Source: an uncultured Pseudomonadales bacterium (GTDB taxonomy: Bacteria > Patescibacteriota > Microgenomatia > UBA1400 > MFAQ01). Taken from it: a stretch of DNA of 64,000 nt. A program made the position numbers and the translations under genes. The notes beneath the pieces are model-generated. The model saw nothing but the letters and a program-made list of their open reading frames with translations, made no database searches and was not told the origin of the DNA. Numbering within the stretch: position 1 is the first letter of the stretch; the number at the start of each line of letters is the position of its first letter. The stretch lies in the NCBI GenBank assembly GCA_964439805.1, contig CAYTOI010000001.1:3573-67572 (forward strand), given 5' to 3'. Below are positions 46,000-52,988 of the stretch, piece after piece.

Positions 46000-46773
46000 A
46001 TGCAATATAATTCCCTCATGCCCAAACGAGTCCTCACCCCCTACGAAAAAAACATTCTTACCAAAAATCATTTCGATTTAAGTGACCCCCTGCTACAAAC
46101 AGACATCCCCGTAGAATATCTTGTCGGCAAAGCTGAGTTTCGAGGTAATGACTTTTTTGTCACAAAAGACACCTTAATTCCCAGAATCGAGACCGAACAA
46201 CTGGTAGATTTAGCTCTCGACAATATTATTAAAAACTTCCCTCCTGACAAAAAAATAATCATTACTGATCTTTGCACTGGCTCTGGCTGCGTAGGTATTT
46301 CACTTGCTCTAGAACTCCTCAAAAAAAACTACAATTTTCATATTTATTTTTCTGATATTTCTTCAAATGCTTTGCAAGTAGCCAAAAAAAACTTTGAACA
46401 TTTATTACCCAATCATCAAGAACTGGCAACATTTATTGAGTCGGATCTTTTTGCTAGTTTTCCTGAAAACGTTAATATCGACTTGGTAGTCGCAAACCCC
46501 CCATACATCCCCTCTCAAAGAATAAAAACACTAGATAATTCTGTTAAAGATTACGAACCCATAATTGCCTTGGACGGCGGTGTAGACGGACTATCTTTAA
46601 TAAATAAAATTGTTACTGATTTACCAAAAATTCAAAACAACAAAGTCAATGCCATTTTGGAAATTGACGAAAAACACAACCTTAAAGCCATTAAAAAAAG
46701 TGAAGGGTTAAACCCTTCACTAATTAAAGACTCTTTCGGTAATAACCGATTTCTATCTCTTCTTTTTCTTTAA
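46000..46773 (+). CDS. prmC: release factor glutamine methyltransferase PrmC/HemK family
   Basis: 257 aa; NPPY motif VVANPPYIP; SAM-binding DLCTGSGCVG. Confidence 0.8.
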   Translation: MQYNSLMPKRVLTPYEKNILTKNHFDLSDPLLQTDIPVEYLVGKAEFRGNDFFVTKDTLIPRIETEQLVDLALDNIIKNFPPDKKIIITDLCTGSGCVGISLALELLKKNYNFHIYFSDISSNALQVAKKNFEHLLPNHQELATFIESDLFASFPENVNIDLVVANPPYIPSQRIKTLDNSVKDYEPIIALDGGVDGLSLINKIVTDLPKIQNNKVNAILEIDEKHNLKAIKKSEGLNPSLIKDSFGNNRFLSLLFL

Positions 46774-46977
46774 GACTTTCTTCTTGGTTTTTGCAACCTG
46801 TGTTTTCACTTTTGCTACTCCAGCTTTACCTTTTTTTACTACTTTTTTTACTTCACTAACTACTTTATTTCTATTTTCTTTATCGGAAAGAAACATTCCC
46901 GCGACTCCAGCAACGACACCTACTACGGCGGCGCCTACAGCGGCAAACAGATTCATGTTATTTTTTTTGGCAGACAT
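46753..46977 (-). CDS. small Lys-rich hypothetical protein with N-terminal hydrophobic segment
   Basis: 74 aa ORF; low complexity. Confidence 0.3.
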   Translation of the reverse strand: MSAKKNNMNLFAAVGAAVVGVVAGVAGMFLSDKENRNKVVSEVKKVVKKGKAGVAKVKTQVAKTKKKVLKKKKR

Positions 46978-47042
46978 TTTTTCTTGCTAACTTTTAATAA
47001 TTTCATTATGACACAAAATACTTTTCTCTGCAAAATCAGGCC

Positions 47043-47073
47043 AAAAAAAGTCCCCCTACCGAAGTAGAGGGAC
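47043..47073 (-). terminator. intrinsic terminator closing the GC-rich island operon
   Basis: Minus strand reads GTCCCTCTAC-TTCG-GTAGGGGGAC followed by TTTTTTTGG, 13 nt after vWA stop. Confidence 0.6.
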
Positions 47074-47085
47074 GAAACACTAAGA

Positions 47086-47910
47086 CTAAATATTTGTAAA
47101 GAAATTGGAATTAACGGGTGCCTGCTGGTTTTGCATTCCCTGGGACTTCGCACCCATACTGGAGCTTACCAACATAAGAGCACGCGTAATGCCGCCCATC
47201 GACCTTTCAACTGTAACAATGTTTCCGTCAGGAATTCCAGCATCTAGTGCCACCTGACGAAAATCTGTTTCATTACCAATGCCTACAAAAGCTATTGTAA
47301 AGTGAGGCTTGCTGTTAAGTTCGCCTAACAGACGACGTACGTCATCATTGGTCCGAACCGCGACAATGTTGGGGTGATATTCACGACCATCCGAGAGGAT
47401 CACTGTTACTTCCTGAACCCCAGTCGCCCCGTAGCTAAAAGCTGAAGCACCAAAGGTTGAGGTCGCTATGACACCGTCATAAATGCCTTCATAAAGTGGC
47501 GTCCAACCATCAGGAATATAATCCACAGATGTTAGCTTTTGGCAATCCTGAACATGAACAAAATCGCGGATAACGCGAACATTTTTCATTCCACTCAAAA
47601 TACTAAAAACGGTAATCCGCACATAAATCTCTTGCCCCGTCTTTTTTCTCATCTTTTCAATATCTTCAAGCATCGCATTTACAGCATTGATCACCACATC
47701 TTCATAGCCAGACAACGATCCTGTAACATCAATCACCAAATTGAAAACCAAAGGAAGCATCGACTCCATAAGAGGAATTTGAACCCCAATAGTTTTTGGT
47801 ATGCCACTGCCGTGTAAATTTGCAAGCAATGTTTGCGATGATGCTGGAGTCAAATGTCCACTTGCTGCAGCCTGTTGAATAGCCAAAGAAACTTGATCTT
47901 GATCGCTCAT
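47086..47910 (-). CDS. von Willebrand factor A domain protein (TerY-like)
   Basis: 274 aa; MIDAS-type DVTGSLSG motif; Rossmann-like alternating pattern; GC-rich island. Confidence 0.65.
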   Translation of the reverse strand: MSDQDQVSLAIQQAAASGHLTPASSQTLLANLHGSGIPKTIGVQIPLMESMLPLVFNLVIDVTGSLSGYEDVVINAVNAMLEDIEKMRKKTGQEIYVRITVFSILSGMKNVRVIRDFVHVQDCQKLTSVDYIPDGWTPLYEGIYDGVIATSTFGASAFSYGATGVQEVTVILSDGREYHPNIVAVRTNDDVRRLLGELNSKPHFTIAFVGIGNETDFRQVALDAGIPDGNIVTVERSMGGITRALMLVSSSMGAKSQGMQNQQAPVNSNFFTNI

Positions 47911-47962
47911 GTTAATCTCCTTTTTATTGGGAGAGAATCAGATTCTCTCCCAAAAATAGTTT

Positions 47963-48940
47963 TTATCCGATCGGATCAGTGCTCTTAACGAGCTTCAATC
48001 CGTAAACTGTGGACAAAGCCTCAAACGCCTGCTTCGCCATATCTTCAAAACCACCAACAGGAGAAGTGCAATCTTCCATAATTCGGATGCGGGACAAAAT
48101 ATCCGATGCGTCATTCTTAAAATAACGAATAATGGAATAAATTGTTTCCAGTACACAGTGGCTACTCGCCTCGCCAGCAATGTAGATCAGATCACAGGTT
48201 TTCAAATCCAATAGAAAATCTTCATCGATACCTGAGTCTTTATCGCCAGCAAATTCTACTTCGCCTTCAACAATAGAGTAGTTCTCGTAAACTTCTCCAG
48301 CGCCCTTAACCTTAAACTTCGGCTGAGATTTACGAGCAATTGCATGAGCAAAAATTGCTTCATACAAAGTCGGTTCAATGGCTTGTTCTGGCGTTCCAAG
48401 CATGCAGTGATTGGCCCAAACCATCAAGTTCTTCTTTTCAAAATCCCCTGCACCAGTGCTGGCTTTTTTACCAAACTGCTCCAACATGGTTAAGTAATAC
48501 TCACTCCAGAGCATACTCTTACCCTTTTTGTATTCATACTGAAAATCAAAGATCGCCTTAACTTTTTTATCCTTCAGATCTTGCAATGTCACAACCGTAA
48601 AGTCGTTCAGGGGTTGACCCTTATCATCGACCCACCAATCCGGGAAAAAGATCTGAAATGGCAAATGGGAATCCATACTTACCGCGATCCGGGTAATTTT
48701 CGCCATATTCTTCAAAATCCAATCGACGATCCGGATCATGTCTTCAATTGCTCCAGGAACACACAGATCACGACCTTTTTCAATAAAGCCGAGCTGAGGA
48801 TCAACCAAAAGGAGCATCACTTTCAACTTGTCTTTCGAGTAGTTTTGAAGGTTTAAAGATCTCCCGTATTTCTTGGCCATTTTCAAATCAGGGTAACGCA
48901 AAGTTCCAACCAAATTCGGATCATAAAATTTTGTATTCAT
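47963..48940 (-). CDS. isochorismatase-family cysteine hydrolase (nicotinamidase-like)
   Basis: 325 aa; LLLVDPQLGF (catalytic Asp region) and AGEASSHCVLET (catalytic Cys). Confidence 0.65.
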   Translation of the reverse strand: MNTKFYDPNLVGTLRYPDLKMAKKYGRSLNLQNYSKDKLKVMLLLVDPQLGFIEKGRDLCVPGAIEDMIRIVDWILKNMAKITRIAVSMDSHLPFQIFFPDWWVDDKGQPLNDFTVVTLQDLKDKKVKAIFDFQYEYKKGKSMLWSEYYLTMLEQFGKKASTGAGDFEKKNLMVWANHCMLGTPEQAIEPTLYEAIFAHAIARKSQPKFKVKGAGEVYENYSIVEGEVEFAGDKDSGIDEDFLLDLKTCDLIYIAGEASSHCVLETIYSIIRYFKNDASDILSRIRIMEDCTSPVGGFEDMAKQAFEALSTVYGLKLVKSTDPIG

Positions 48941-48962
48941 GTTTTCTCCTTTTTATTATTTT

Positions 48963-50837
48963 TTAGATTACCAGGTAATTTACCTGTTTCTCACGAATTA
49001 CCAAAAAGTGTTTTCTACCACCTAGGTGAACCAACTTGTCATTAGCCTCTACCAATCTTTCTGTTTTTGGAACCAAAGTAAAAGTATTTTTTCTCAAGTC
49101 CTCCACTATCAAACCAGAATCATCTTGCCAATATATTTCCCCGTCTTCATAGGCAGTTCTGTGAACCTCAGATGCCGGCAGTTTTGCCAACAAGTGAGCG
49201 CTCTCAAAAATCGACTGTCCAAACAGATCAAAAATCTCAGTCAAAACAGTCATTTTCCCGTTTCGGTTAACAACTCTACGCAAACAAACCGTCTCAGTAC
49301 CGAACAACGCAACTGTCTCTCGCAGAGAATCTCCACTATTGAGTTCAGCTTGTTTCAAACTAAAACGTCTTTCTTTGTGAATTAATTGAAAATGGTATTT
49401 GTTAAACAAACGAGAAAGGGTCAATATCTTCTGTCCTGTCGTATCTGACCAAATCCAAGTTTCTTGTTTTGATACCGTAGCTGGCAAAACTTTCTCTAAC
49501 ATTCTGCCATTACTTACATAACCTAGTAGTAACTTGCTTCCAGACTGTCTTAATAAACCCAGTGAAGTTCCTCGAAAAACAGTTTGCCTGTTTCCCAAAA
49601 ACATTTCTGAGCTGCTAGTAATCCACGACTGACCAGGAACACTTATGTGAGTCAGGTATATCATTTCCGTATCAATCTGATTAACAGCAAGGTATTCGTC
49701 CCCCACCATTTCAAATCGATAAGAAAAATTCAAATCCAAGTCCACAAAAACCTTTACGGGTTTACCGTTTCCAGGTCGAATTGTCAAATAATAACCACTT
49801 TTTTCTCGAGATACCACATAAAGATTACCAGACTGAAAACGAGCAAATAGTATTTCTCCATTGGTTTTTATCAGGTTTTCATATAAATATGTCGGCTGAA
49901 AATTAACCATTGGAGTTTTATATGTACATTTCGGACAGGCCTTTCTTGTTTTTGGATAAAACAAGCCACAGCTTCCGCACTCAATCAAAGAAGATTGATA
50001 TGCATCTAGCATTGTTAATTGTATTTCCTCATACTGATGCTTTTCAAAAACATTTGCAAATTTTTCTAGCAGTTCATCCGAAACAGAATCCGGATGATTT
50101 GCAAGCGATGTTTGCTGAACACCTTTATTTAAATACCAAATACCTTTTGCGGCCCTCTCTCGAAAATCCAAGTACTTCGGGTGAATCTGCGAATAGTGGT
50201 GAATATTAAACAAGCTCCAAAAGAGCATCGTCCAGTAGCCATACCAATCAGACTCTTCCGTATACTTAACTCTTCCTGAATTTGCTTGAGAATATAGGTC
50301 CGGACAAAGAAAATACTCAGTCCAAACAGGGCACCTTATCCCATTAATTTGCCATGCATCTGTGTCATACCAATAAACGTCTACACCTCGTTTTCCAAAA
50401 ACAAAAGATGCGTTTCTACCAGACACGTCTCCAGCGATTATGTTGTTTTTATGAATGATCGACAAATCCCGACCAACAATTTTCATAATTTCTACAACAG
50501 TTGGTGTAAAAATACGCAAAGTTGTCCTCAGAGATTTGTTAAACAAAACTCCAATCTCACGAAAACTACTAGGCATTTCTACCATCCCGTAACCCCTAAG
50601 CTCTCCTCCACCGTTTGGTCGAGTACTCAAAGGAATCTTGGGAAACAAAAAACGATCCGGTAAATTTGGTTTATTTTTTAACAAATATTGTATTTTTTGC
50701 AATTGGTCTGGCTCAATACTCTTTAAAACTTTTACCGCCCAGCCACTTTGTCTTACCACTACGGCTTGGCCTCCATCTCCCAAAGTAACACCATTGTTTA
50801 AAAAAGGGTCACTACCCAAGTACAACCTGTCAGTCAT
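48963..50837 (-). CDS. Ser/Thr protein-kinase-like protein with central zinc ribbon and large C-terminal domain
   Basis: 624 aa; Gly-rich loop LGDGGQAVVV, Lys AVKVL, catalytic-loop-like IIHKNNIIAGDVSGRN, then CGSCG...CPKC zinc ribbon. Confidence 0.55.
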   Translation of the reverse strand: MTDRLYLGSDPFLNNGVTLGDGGQAVVVRQSGWAVKVLKSIEPDQLQKIQYLLKNKPNLPDRFLFPKIPLSTRPNGGGELRGYGMVEMPSSFREIGVLFNKSLRTTLRIFTPTVVEIMKIVGRDLSIIHKNNIIAGDVSGRNASFVFGKRGVDVYWYDTDAWQINGIRCPVWTEYFLCPDLYSQANSGRVKYTEESDWYGYWTMLFWSLFNIHHYSQIHPKYLDFRERAAKGIWYLNKGVQQTSLANHPDSVSDELLEKFANVFEKHQYEEIQLTMLDAYQSSLIECGSCGLFYPKTRKACPKCTYKTPMVNFQPTYLYENLIKTNGEILFARFQSGNLYVVSREKSGYYLTIRPGNGKPVKVFVDLDLNFSYRFEMVGDEYLAVNQIDTEMIYLTHISVPGQSWITSSSEMFLGNRQTVFRGTSLGLLRQSGSKLLLGYVSNGRMLEKVLPATVSKQETWIWSDTTGQKILTLSRLFNKYHFQLIHKERRFSLKQAELNSGDSLRETVALFGTETVCLRRVVNRNGKMTVLTEIFDLFGQSIFESAHLLAKLPASEVHRTAYEDGEIYWQDDSGLIVEDLRKNTFTLVPKTERLVEANDKLVHLGGRKHFLVIREKQVNYLVI

Positions 50838-51593
50838 TTATACCTCCAATCTTTTCAGAAAAATCACAGAAACATTGTCTTTTGTATCCGAACGAATTGT
50901 TGAAATTCTATTAAGACACATCTGCAAACTAAAATTTGAATTTGAATATGCATTTAGCTCATCCATTAAATGAGGGTAAGAAGATAAACCGTCCGAAGAT
51001 ACTCCTGCAACTCTTACAGAATCAGCAGAAAGAATCTCCGTCTCGAATCCATTTGGCAACAAAGATTGTATCTCTGCCCCAACTTCTCCATAACTCTCAT
51101 ATAGGTGATACGCAGGGTATCGAGGTCTGTTTAAACTTTCGGGGTTTAAAACTTTATGAACAGAATCATTTAAATAACTCAATCCGTCTCCCGCCCAAAA
51201 GTAAACAATCTCTGACTCATCAGCCAAAATACCAATCGTAGTACACATCAAATACAAAGAAATAAAGTCTAGTTTTTCATCATTATCACTCAAAAACTGA
51301 GACTCAACTTGCCACCAAAGATAATCAATGTATTCTGGAAAAAGTAACGAAGGAATTAAGCTTGGCTTTACACCTTCAAGTAACATTGCTCGAGATCTAC
51401 GAATCAAAAAAAGGTTGGACAAATGAGCTCCAACTTCGGACTTTAAATTTAATTTTAACAGTCCATGGCAGCCATCGTTAATAATACCAGCAGCCACAAA
51501 ACTATTTGTCCAGACACTTGCAACGTCTTGGTTATTCCTGCCTTCATGAAAATACGTCAAACCTTGTGCTGAAGCCGATGTAATCTTCCACAT
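50838..51593 (-). CDS. PP2C-family Ser/Thr protein phosphatase
   Basis: 251 aa; GRNNQDV...INDGCHG, FWAGDGLSYL, VSSDGL motifs matching PP2C metal-binding blocks; AGGAG RBS 5 nt upstream. Confidence 0.75.
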   Translation of the reverse strand: MWKITSASAQGLTYFHEGRNNQDVASVWTNSFVAAGIINDGCHGLLKLNLKSEVGAHLSNLFLIRRSRAMLLEGVKPSLIPSLLFPEYIDYLWWQVESQFLSDNDEKLDFISLYLMCTTIGILADESEIVYFWAGDGLSYLNDSVHKVLNPESLNRPRYPAYHLYESYGEVGAEIQSLLPNGFETEILSADSVRVAGVSSDGLSSYPHLMDELNAYSNSNFSLQMCLNRISTIRSDTKDNVSVIFLKRLEV

Positions 51594-51661
51594 ACCATCT
51601 CCTTATATTTAATCTTAATGTCAAGGTTCTAATACCCCACACTTAGTGTATTTATGACACC

Positions 51662-51689
51662 ATTATACCTCACAACTCTACTGTGTCAA
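51662..51689 (-). promoter_or_regulatory. consensus sigma70-type promoter driving the island operon
   Basis: Minus strand reads TTGACA-cagtagagttgtgagg(16 nt)-TATAAT, ~70 nt upstream of PP2C start. Confidence 0.55.
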
Positions 51690-51710
51690 GACGGGTATTA
51701 TAACCTCAAT

Positions 51711-52988
51711 TTAGATGGAAACAAGGCTAATTATGCGGGTTAGTAGGGGCTGAGACCCTTCTATTACCTCGCCAGCCTCAGTAGTAATGTATACGTTTTG
51801 CTTCGCCGTAACCTTAAACAGACCAAAAACGTTGTAGGTTTTATCACCTACTACCTTATAGGACAATTCCGATCCATAATTTTCCAAGGTTGGGACACTA
51901 TCTTTGTTCAATTTTTCAAAAGTCTTCAAATCAACAGCCTCCTTAATTGCCTGCATCGGGAGCACCTTTAGCTCCTTTTTACCATCAAATGTCTCTACAA
52001 AAATTTTCTGACTATCAATATTTACATGCACGGGACTATCTGTAGTTACCACCACCCCATCCTGAACCAAGGCAAAAAGATTATCACTTGTTACGTTTAG
52101 TTTTACCTTTTTGTTATCCAGTATTTTGTTTAGTGTCACCTCAGCACTTCTCAAATCATCTTCTTTAATATTAAGAATGCTCTGCTCTGAGTTTTGAGCA
52201 GCCAAAACCACATTCCCTCCCTGCAATCTATAAAAGATATCTACATCTCCTGTCAAAACGTTGTTGTCCAACTTATCCTCTTTAATAGTTGGCACCTTCA
52301 AAGCTTGTGAGGGACTAGGCTTGCTTATAAACTCCCCTCTACTCACTTCTTGAATTTTATTTTGTATAGATTTAATTACACTCCTTTTGGGTGGAGAATA
52401 ATAAGTTTTGTTTTCTTCTGTCACTGACTTCTCCGAAACAGGTACATAAACAATTACTTTTTCAGTTGAATAAATTGTTTGAGTTTGAACTGTCCCTGAT
52501 TGCAAACTGGGGTGATCAAAGACCTCAGTATCTTTAGCTGTTTTATACTCAATATTGCTAGTCGGGTTTACAGTTGTATTGTCTTCGGCGGGCACTGAAT
52601 TTCTTCCCTGTAAACGCTGAGCAATGGTAGCTCTTGGTAATACTACAACATCGGTAATTGTTGGTTCTACAGTAATTACTGAGGTCACCGTAACACTATC
52701 AGTAACAGCAGCAGTGACAGTAGATGTTATTGTGGCGGAAACATTATTGTCCTGATTGTTATTTTGATTATTATTTCCGTTATTGTTCAAGCCACCGTTA
52801 TTCCACCAGCCAGAATTATCATTATCAGAATGATCACCAAGAACTTTCGTATCGTTTTTCCCAAAAAAACTTTGCCCAAAAAATCCTAGTCCCAAAACTA
52901 AGCACAAAACCAAAAAAACATTGTTCTGAAAAAGTTTAATTCTTTTTCTTTTTGCCATGTAAAATCTTATCACTTTTGGGAATTTCAC
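51711..52988 (-). CDS. hypothetical secreted/membrane-anchored protein with Asn-rich low-complexity region
   Basis: 425 aa; N-terminal TM, NNNGNNNQNNNQDNN tract, Thr/Val-rich repeats. Confidence 0.4.
   Translation of the reverse strand: MKFPKVIRFYMAKRKRIKLFQNNVFLVLCLVLGLGFFGQSFFGKNDTKVLGDHSDNDNSGWWNNGGLNNNGNNNQNNNQDNNVSATITSTVTAAVTDSVTVTSVITVEPTITDVVVLPRATIAQRLQGRNSVPAEDNTTVNPTSNIEYKTAKDTEVFDHPSLQSGTVQTQTIYSTEKVIVYVPVSEKSVTEENKTYYSPPKRSVIKSIQNKIQEVSRGEFISKPSPSQALKVPTIKEDKLDNNVLTGDVDIFYRLQGGNVVLAAQNSEQSILNIKEDDLRSAEVTLNKILDNKKVKLNVTSDNLFALVQDGVVVTTDSPVHVNIDSQKIFVETFDGKKELKVLPMQAIKEAVDLKTFEKLNKDSVPTLENYGSELSYKVVGDKTYNVFGLFKVTAKQNVYITTEAGEVIEGSQPLLTRIISLVSI

Follow-up and report, generated by a model that had tools for sequence, protein, structure and literature searches.

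The genes described here lie on the minus strand of a 64,000-nucleotide stretch of contig CAYTOI010000001.1 (assembly GCA_964439805.1, from an uncultured bacterium of the Patescibacteriota in GTDB); this whole stretch is termed the window. Four consecutive genes encode a PP2C-like phosphatase, a kinase with a zinc ribbon and a beta-propeller, a long nicotinamidase-like enzyme (nic) and a vWA-domain protein, and are together termed the cassette. The nic open reading frame (ORF) at 47963-48940 was found exactly as given in an initial annotation of this DNA: it encodes 325 amino acids (aa), includes LLLVDPQLGF (D47) and AGEASSHCVLET (C262) and is located between the kinase-like and vWA genes. Profile searches and a predicted structure assign the enzyme to the nicotinamidase class of isochorismatase-fold cysteine hydrolases, and its linkage to the phosphatase, kinase and vWA triad is near-obligate when viewed from the kinase.

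The family assignment of nic was based on a profile search of the PDB, structure prediction and a fold search. A word-indexed search returned 270 homologues at E ≤ 1e-3, the best with 89% identity. The closest were from Woesebacteria/Patescibacteria, which makes a bacterium of the candidate phyla radiation the probable source of the DNA, and several homologues carried the Joint Genome Institute (JGI) label 'nicotinamidase-related amidase'. An exhaustive profile search returned 3354 cluster representatives at E ≤ 1e-3, with 1139 at E ≤ 1e-30. Given these numbers of homologues, the 325-aa ORF was taken to be a real gene. A search of the PDB with the single 325-aa sequence returned nothing; a profile of 46 sequences matched yeast Pnc1 (7.6e-7) and the nicotinamidases of M. 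tuberculosis, P. horikoshii and A. baumannii.

The Asp-Lys-Cys triad (D47, K212, C262) was invariant in the alignment of the same 46 sequences, as were the metal ligands D90, H92 and H178, and the metal motifs D90-S-H92-x-P94 and W175-P-x-H178 were invariant or nearly so. Residues D8, D51, H53, H94, K122 and C167 of Pnc1 align with D47, D90, H92, H178, K212 and C262, respectively. Within the cis-peptide motif G256-E-A258-S-S-H-C262, as read from the sequence, A258 was invariant and G256 at least 90% conserved. G-x-A cis-peptide and D-x-H-x-P metal motifs are hallmarks of nicotinamidases, the metal of these enzymes binds the free pyridine nitrogen, and the G149-V-A...C155 motif of UbNic has a spacing equal to that of G256-x-A258-x3-C262 (PMC5531466). 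Because the whole metal site is kept, free nicotinamide would be favoured as substrate over a ribosylated pyridine. UbNic itself is of the ordinary short type (PMC5531466).

The AlphaFold 2 (AF2) model of the 325-aa protein had a pLDDT (predicted local distance difference test) value of 92.5 and a predicted template modelling (pTM) score of 0.91. When the model was compared with the PDB utilizing Foldseek, ranks 1-18 were all nicotinamidases, the best being 2wta at 1.4e-12, with target-normalised TM scores of 0.69-0.79 except for the longer target 9u8m (0.48). Carbamoylsarcosine amidase, biuret hydrolase, maleamate amidase and isochorismatases were found at lower ranks. The initial annotation had placed the protein in the isochorismatase-like hydrolase family from its Asp and Cys blocks, leaving the subfamily and the intactness of the catalytic triad to be checked; profile, alignment and fold search agree with that placement, put the nicotinamidase type ahead of isochorismatase and carbamoylsarcosine amidase, and locate all three triad residues.

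Compared with the PncA-Pnc1 nicotinamidases (2H0R of yeast, 2WTA of A. baumannii, 3PL1 of M. tuberculosis), nic has the same fold, triad and Asp-His-His site, the G-x-A motif four residues before the Cys, a Y-S motif after the Lys and a pncB/nadE/nrtR neighbourhood. The nic family differs in its length (~310-325 aa versus 180-235 aa), in scoring under the PF00857 threshold, and in that a dedicated vWA gene usually comes after nic and kinase and PP2C genes mostly accompany it. The extra length is accounted for by an N-terminal extension of ~40 aa and by an insertion of ~45-65 aa, relative to Pnc1 and PncA, between D-x-H and W-P-x-H, which are ~83 residues apart in the nic family versus ~40 in Pnc1.

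Several homologues were fusion proteins. P0139 is a tandem duplication, P0180 carries an ADH_N domain, and P0246 (1629 aa) combines ankyrin repeats and an ion-transport domain with four nic-like stretches. Nine further fusions (P0177, P0181, P0187, P0193, P0195, P0210, P0255, P0264 and P0267) have an N-terminal domain of ~210-300 aa. Fusions joining nic to domains of the triad were looked for and rejected, as the N-terminal extensions of the 525-613-aa fusions matched no PP2C, kinase or vWA profile.

The features of the operon are collected in Table 1. The promoter is the sole 12/12 site within 46700-52000. The kinase and nic genes are separated by 22 nucleotides (nt) and nic and vWA by 52 nt, and the PP2C and kinase ORFs abut. 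From the tight spacing, the perfect promoter and the strong terminator around the four minus-strand genes, these were concluded to form one transcription unit. The hairpin in the nic-vWA spacer is conserved in structure and not in sequence, and may set the nic:vWA ratio by acting in processing, stability or attenuation. In four loci of the candidate phyla radiation (CPR; L081, L085, L087 and L089), GC-rich hairpins (GGGAG...CUCCC) of other sequence were seen in the same place.

Table 1. Coordinates of the genes and control elements of the nic operon, numbered from the first nucleotide of the window
Feature	Position	Strand	Description
PP2C-like Ser/Thr phosphatase	50838..51593	-	251 aa; first gene of the operon; abuts the kinase ORF
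Kinase with zinc ribbon and propeller	48963..50837	-	624 aa; kinase residues 1-~283, zinc ribbon C287..C304, seven-bladed beta-propeller residues ~318-624
Long-form nicotinamidase (nic)	47963..48940	-	325 aa; ATG start; third of four genes
vWA-domain protein	47086..47910	-	274 aa; metal-ion-dependent adhesion site (MIDAS) motif; directly downstream of nic
Sigma-70-type promoter	51662..51689	-	TTGACA-16 nt-TATAAT; 12/12 consensus; 69 nt 5' of the PP2C start codon
Operator-like palindrome	51643..51663		21 bp, ATGGTGTCATAAATACACTAA (minus-strand reading); core GTGT-N7-ACAC; right after the -10 box; candidate NrtR box
Stem-loop in nic-vWA spacer	47927..47953	-	perfect 12-bp stem, 3-nt loop; no U-tract
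Intrinsic terminator	47050..47073	-	10-bp stem with 6 GC pairs; T7 tail; 13 nt past the vWA stop codon

The companion proteins retain their catalytic residues, as judged from alignments of the PP2C and kinase families and from the MIDAS of the vWA protein. The PP2C protein of the window matched PF13672 (PP2C_2) at E = 6.9e-4, under the Pfam cut-off; its orthologues in L085, L089, L173 and L157 matched PF13672 clearly, and D23, D40-G41, D136-G137, D201 and D239, which include the metal-binding Asp residues, were invariant in 19 sequences. No Pfam match was obtained for the 624-aa kinase or the 274-aa vWA protein of the window. A profile of the kinase family matched eukaryote-type Ser/Thr kinases in the PDB, namely IKK-beta-type chains (best 3qa8 at 3.7e-6), and PF00069 (Pkinase) was matched by 15 of the 23 kinase relatives. 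Invariant positions of the family are G22-G23 of the Gly-rich loop, K36, D137, N142, D158 and D160, and the zinc ribbon, C287-x2-C...C301-P-x-C304, follows directly after the kinase domain. The AF2 model of the 624-aa protein, which is of moderate quality and was built on a shallow alignment of 15 sequences (pLDDT 81.9, pTM 0.51), has ~28 strands in its C-terminal half. The best Foldseek match was the kinase-WD40 half of LRRK2, followed by seven-bladed propellers of the clathrin/Vps18 type. In the vWA protein the MIDAS residues D61-x-T-x-S65, T137 and D174 are present and a C-terminal Ser cluster (S249, S251, S256) is conserved; PF00092 (VWA) was matched by 13 of the 29 family members, the best at 1.2e-8. 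By its domain and MIDAS residues the protein is a candidate TerY-like protein, and none of the 29 members matched a vWA or TerY-type model of PADLOC. Kinase relatives matched generic kinase models of PADLOC only.

According to PMC11090510, which summarises Anantharaman, Iyer and Aravind (2012), the TerY-P triad consists of a TerY-like vWA protein, a PP2C phosphatase and a Ser/Thr kinase with a C-terminal zinc ribbon, and a variant with an OB-fold is antiphage (Gao et al., 2020, as cited there). The kinase-phosphatase-vWA operon named in the initial annotation has this composition. The nic operon shares with TerY-P the three domain types, a zinc ribbon right after the kinase and a tight operon that moves between lineages as a unit. 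It differs in almost always having a fourth, enzymatic gene, in the seven-bladed beta-propeller added to the kinase, and in its setting of nicotinamide adenine dinucleotide (NAD) salvage with an NrtR-type operator in place of tellurite-resistance, restriction or CoCoNuT loci.

Conservation of the cassette was surveyed in both directions. Close relatives share the entire neighbourhood, and in CPR relatives further away (59%, 47% and 46% identity) the surroundings differ and the four genes alone are kept. A forward survey anchored on nic covered the best 80 of at least 591 species-level genome matches, from Chloroflexota, Myxococcota, Lachnospiraceae, Prevotella, Clostridia and Woesebacteria. 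It contained 20 loci with nic, vWA and kinase, 13 of them with a detectable PP2C gene, and 6 with nic and vWA only. The cassette was also found in the first five of these lineages and in L173. The pairing of nic with vWA persists where kinase and PP2C are absent, and such minimal pairs were found in several Chloroflexota (pairs with no kinase or PP2C within 10 kb: L036, L039, L041, L052, L062, L063 and L172 6001-8003). In a neighbour-joining tree, nic genes standing alone formed three clades among the cassette-linked ones.

A reverse survey anchored on the kinase was performed with a Chloroflexota-type kinase sub-alignment and yielded 80 metagenome loci. Nic was present in 59; 17 loci end too early, 3 are truncated at the end at which nic would be expected in a permuted cassette and 1 is without it, so that nic was present in 59 of the 60 informative loci. 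In that sole exception (L157 8876-10293), genes for RNase H and an NAD synthetase (PF02540, 8e-51) are located directly 3' of the kinase. Two gene orders were observed among 61 non-redundant loci, pp2c-kin-nic-vwa in 52 and nic-vwa-pp2c-kin in 9, and vWA followed nic directly in 59 of the 61, in both orders. The four genes are therefore co-conserved, in keeping with the four-component variant proposed in the initial annotation, and the objection that nic could be a frequent but unrelated neighbour of the triad fails on these counts.

Genes of NAD salvage were recurrent neighbours. NrtR, NadE or NAPRTase was detected in the searched flanks of 34 of 70 non-redundant cassette loci (NrtR in 15, NadE in 16, NAPRTase in 11), in many cases co-oriented with the cassette and no more than 1.5 kb away, as in the order pncB-nadE-pp2c-kin-nic-vwa of L118. 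NAPRTase (pncB) and a regulator of the NrtR type are encoded ahead of the cassette in L089. The same three genes were also found beside ten nic-alone loci, for example as nadE-nic-nrtR in Sphingobacterium, and nrtR was adjacent to 7 of the 53 nic-alone loci. When 148 ORFs flanking 38 of the loci were scanned with Pfam without preselection of families, NUDIX (12), NrtR_WHD (8), AraR_C (7) and NAD_synthase (5) headed the matches; the AraR_C matches probably overlap NrtR_WHD matches on the same proteins. QRPTase_N, NAPRTase and ADP-ribosylglycohydrolase were also among the matches. PADLOC gave no systematic matches and no defence-island signature on the same 148 ORFs. The cellular context is that of NAD salvage and not of defence islands.

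With the enzyme class, the nrtR/pncB/nadE flanks make the NAD-related chemistry suggested in the initial annotation very likely. The accompanying suggestion that the enzyme is a defence effector was abandoned: PADLOC returned a marginal KwaB match on nic (E = 0.027) and the generic kinase models only, and with neither defence-model matches nor defence neighbours this role is unsupported. Of the initial interpretation, the hydrolase type, the triad, the four genes and the NAD chemistry are thus supported and the defence role is not.

The palindrome GTGT-N7-ACAC has one match in the 64-kb window, the site abutting the -10 box. This palindrome recurs at the same position in L081, L084, L085 and L087 and also in the spacer between the divergent pncB and nrtR genes of L089; the cross-phylum consensus is WWAGTGTA-N5-TACACTWW. 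In 2.27 Mb of cellular loci there were 78 exact AGTGT-N7-ACACT sites versus ~2 expected (~35-fold enrichment), and 67 of them sit upstream of nic (34), pp2c (25), kin, vwa, nrtR or pncB at a distance of up to 250 nt. With up to one mismatch, 43 of 86 loci have the operator upstream of pp2c and 8 of 25 have it upstream of nrtR, and the box was upstream of all six nic+vWA genome pairs. Phage loci served as a control for this enrichment, as an operator scan of 1.86 Mb gave 2 sites, which is chance level.

NrtR sites have been described as 21-bp palindromes with a GT-N7-AC core that overlap promoters, from which NrtR is released by ADP-ribose acting as an anti-repressor; nrtR-pncA is given for a Chloroflexi genome and, in the form #nrtR-pncA, for Roseiflexus (Rodionov et al., 2008, PMC2330246). 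From the form of the operator and this description we infer the operon to be part of the NrtR regulon, with induction upon NAD cleavage. The operon is probably under NrtR/ADP-ribose control, with NrtR as the putative operator-binding protein. Features shared with the published regulon (for example, Clostridium nrtR-pncA-pncB-nadD-nadE) are the 21-bp GT-N7-AC palindrome overlapping the promoter, pncB or nadE in the cluster, and an adjacent nrtR that is apparently autoregulated in many loci. The published regulon comprises metabolic and transport genes only, and a kinase/PP2C/vWA triad is not mentioned there (PMC2330246). The nrtX-nrtY unit of the same paper was considered as an earlier sighting of the triad and set aside, since it has two genes and nothing in the text allows it to be identified with the triad.

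Copies of the cassette were also found in viral sequences. IMG/VR contained 143 nic relatives, and nearly all of the 80 loci retained carry nic-vwa-pp2c-kin. Among GenBank huge phages, LR756500 (462 kb; L334, 64738-83562) has nadE ... nic-vwa-pp2c-kin and LR745208 (485 kb; L336) has the full cassette; in LR756511 (595 kb; L335), nic, vWA and PP2C were detected and the kinase was not. Viral flanking ORFs matched PHROGs families for RIIB, head maturation protease, RNA ligase, NAD synthetase and nicotinamide-nucleotide adenylyltransferase. NAD genes are not mentioned in the huge-phage paper. Dozens of gut viral contigs of 40-165 kb (L174-L253) carry the cassette, often near genes for NAD synthetase, NAPRTase or nicotinamide mononucleotide (NMN) adenylyltransferase.

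Three phage pathways of NAD reconstitution have been described (10.1101/2024.02.11.579819; PMC13464706): NARP1 (Adps+Namat), NARP2 (Nampt+Nmnat) and NARP3 (PnuC+NadR-like). The phage cassettes resemble NARP1-3 in that NAD-rebuilding genes are phage-borne, with the cassette beside NAD synthetase and NMN adenylyltransferase. They differ in lacking the NARP enzyme pairs, in a predicted route of deamidation followed by the Preiss-Handler pathway instead of amidated routes, and in having three signalling proteins and being common in cellular genomes; a counter-defence role for the cassette is conjecture. NARP3 (PMC13464706) was rejected as unrelated, being PnuC+NadR-like.

The explanation we hold to be moderately probable is a nicotinamide-salvage operon controlled by NrtR and ADP-ribose, the enzyme of which is gated by a TerY-P-like phospho-switch. 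It draws on the enzyme class, the layout of the operon, the co-conservation of its genes, the NAD genes around it and the conserved operator. The 325-aa enzyme would be metal-dependent and would convert nicotinamide to nicotinate and ammonia, with which Preiss-Handler NAD salvage begins, as predicted from its motifs and model. NrtR, a Nudix-related regulator, would repress the operon until ADP-ribose built up from NAD cleavage and relieved the repression. The kinase, with its propeller as a sensor or docking module, and the PP2C phosphatase would reversibly phosphorylate the vWA protein, the enzyme or both, and the conserved C-terminal Ser cluster may point to the vWA protein as the substrate of the switch. 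The vWA protein may bind the enzyme via its MIDAS site and thereby control whether the enzyme is active or loaded with metal.

Several observations weigh against this explanation. The targets of the kinase and PP2C, the role of the vWA protein and any physical or phosphorylation link between triad and enzyme are what we infer. The 325-aa protein matched nothing in Pfam, PF00857 (Isochorismatase) included, or in NCBIfam even at E ≤ 0.1; likewise, 120 homologues had no precomputed PF00857 or NCBIfam match, and PF00857 was matched by the tandem fusion P0139 only (8.7e-11). The missed curated models are a sign of a divergent subfamily and not of a place outside the superfamily, the Pfam match being missed because of the long N-terminal extension and the longer inter-motif loop. 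Identity to solved nicotinamidases is just 13-19%, the insertion is close to the active site and could alter the substrate, and no characterised member of the long subfamily turned up in the literature. The catalytic loop of the kinase, G-D-L/V-x-x-x-N, is as RIO/APH-like as it is like that of a classical protein kinase. Nic was alone in 53 of the 80 genome loci, so the enzyme as such can function without the triad. Half of the 70 cassette loci have no NAD gene in the searched flanks, nrtR, pncB and nadE were searched for in the 64-kb window and none was found, and the window operator has one mismatch to AGTGT-N7-ACACT.

The main rival, which we consider unlikely and which is favoured mainly by the phage distribution, is that the cassette is an NAD-centred module in phage-host conflict, the triad sensing infection or NAD cleavage and switching the nicotinamidase on. 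Phages would utilize it to counter NAD-depleting immunity by Preiss-Handler-type NAD reconstitution, and cells would use it for recovery or to support immunity; the chemistry of a salvage nicotinamidase is compatible with both. The full cassette is present in huge phages and in most of the 143 IMG/VR relatives, with phage-family genes in the flanks, although IMG/VR contigs of more than 200 kb may be provirus-containing host DNA, and the phage copies are without the host operator (the 2 sites in 1.86 Mb). The triad has the composition of TerY-P, relatives of which protect against phage according to PMC11090510 (citing Gao 2020); beyond the marginal KwaB match and the generic kinase models, however, no PADLOC model matched the four proteins. 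Spread over phyla is patchy and two gene orders exist, yet cellular flanks carry no defence-island signature and the window neighbours are housekeeping genes. The inferred inducer, ADP-ribose (PMC2330246), is also a product of immune NADases (10.1101/2024.02.11.579819), whereas the known phage pathways NARP1-3 employ other enzymes.

Two further alternatives were given little credence. If the genes were independent neighbours, nic would be an ordinary housekeeping PncA and the triad would regulate something unrelated, sharing only the transcript. This would fit the occurrence of the enzyme family alone in three clades and the putative nature of any interaction of triad and enzyme; it is made improbable by nic being retained in all but one of the informative kinase-anchored loci, by a nic-vWA adjacency that survives circular permutation of the gene order in bacteria and phages, by the same operator in 6/6 nic+vWA pairs and by a kinase family never seen outside this context in the surveys made. 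It is similarly doubtful that the enzyme acts on another amide or ester, as an isochorismatase, an N-carbamoylsarcosine amidase or a YcaC-like protein, or on NMN, nicotinamide riboside (NR) or a protein-linked amide. The large insertions by the active-site entrance (residues 95-175), the 40-aa N-terminal extension, the very low identity to characterised enzymes and the lack of a Pfam match would suit such a substrate; set against them are an invariant Asp-His-His metal site that isochorismatases and carbamoylsarcosine amidases lack, the ranking of nicotinamidases above all other subfamilies in both sequence and fold searches, and the pncB/nadE/nrtR context.

A wider and more speculative possibility, to which we assign a lower probability than to the salvage operon, is that the cassette is a regulated, horizontally mobile NAD+-rebuilding module of bacteria and phages, in which the triad responds to NAD+ cleavage or infection by allowing nicotinamide to be deamidated for the Preiss-Handler route. 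If true, huge and gut phages would possess a fourth type of counter-defence by NAD+ reconstitution, one controlled by signalling. The phage copies beside NAD synthetase and NMN adenylyltransferase point to a Preiss-Handler-type phage pathway unlike the three described ones.

TerY-P-type vWA/kinase/PP2C triads are, to our knowledge, widespread and in some cases antiphage, and we know of no sensed signal or target for them. The triad is here tied to an enzyme of predictable chemistry and to an operator with a likely known regulator and inducer, so that both input and output of the switch are testable. Control of nicotinamidase by the triad would be the first defined output of a TerY-P-type phospho-switch. 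Known regulation of bacterial NAD salvage is mainly transcriptional, and post-translational control would be added to it. The large nicotinamidase subfamily missed by curated models (>1000 cluster representatives at E ≤ 1e-30) matters for reconstruction of NAD pathways in Chloroflexota and CPR.

Full-text literature searches (nicotinamidase, isochorismatase or pncA with vWA, TerY, PP2C, defence or NAD salvage) returned no description of the arrangement, the paper of Anantharaman (2012) being outside their scope. The view in the initial annotation that the architecture is not a described one is thus matched by the absence of a published description in these searches, and an earlier mention of the four-gene arrangement may exist in the original TerY-P paper.

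The surroundings of the operon in the window are formed by housekeeping genes (BacA, Na/H exchanger, SufBD, RNase J-like). At 51711-52988 on the minus strand, just upstream of the cassette, is an ORF of 425 aa that is hydrophobic at its N-terminus and has a low-complexity stretch rich in Asn; a Pfam scan gave no match for it. This ORF has a counterpart of 412 aa in the closest relative, L081, and is absent from L084. An Rfam scan of the window located two tRNAs and matched no other family. GC content is 35-41%, GC skew is negative in nearly all 2-kb bins (cumulative -8.6) and genes are mostly on the minus strand. The skew and strand bias of the window are consistent with one replichore arm.

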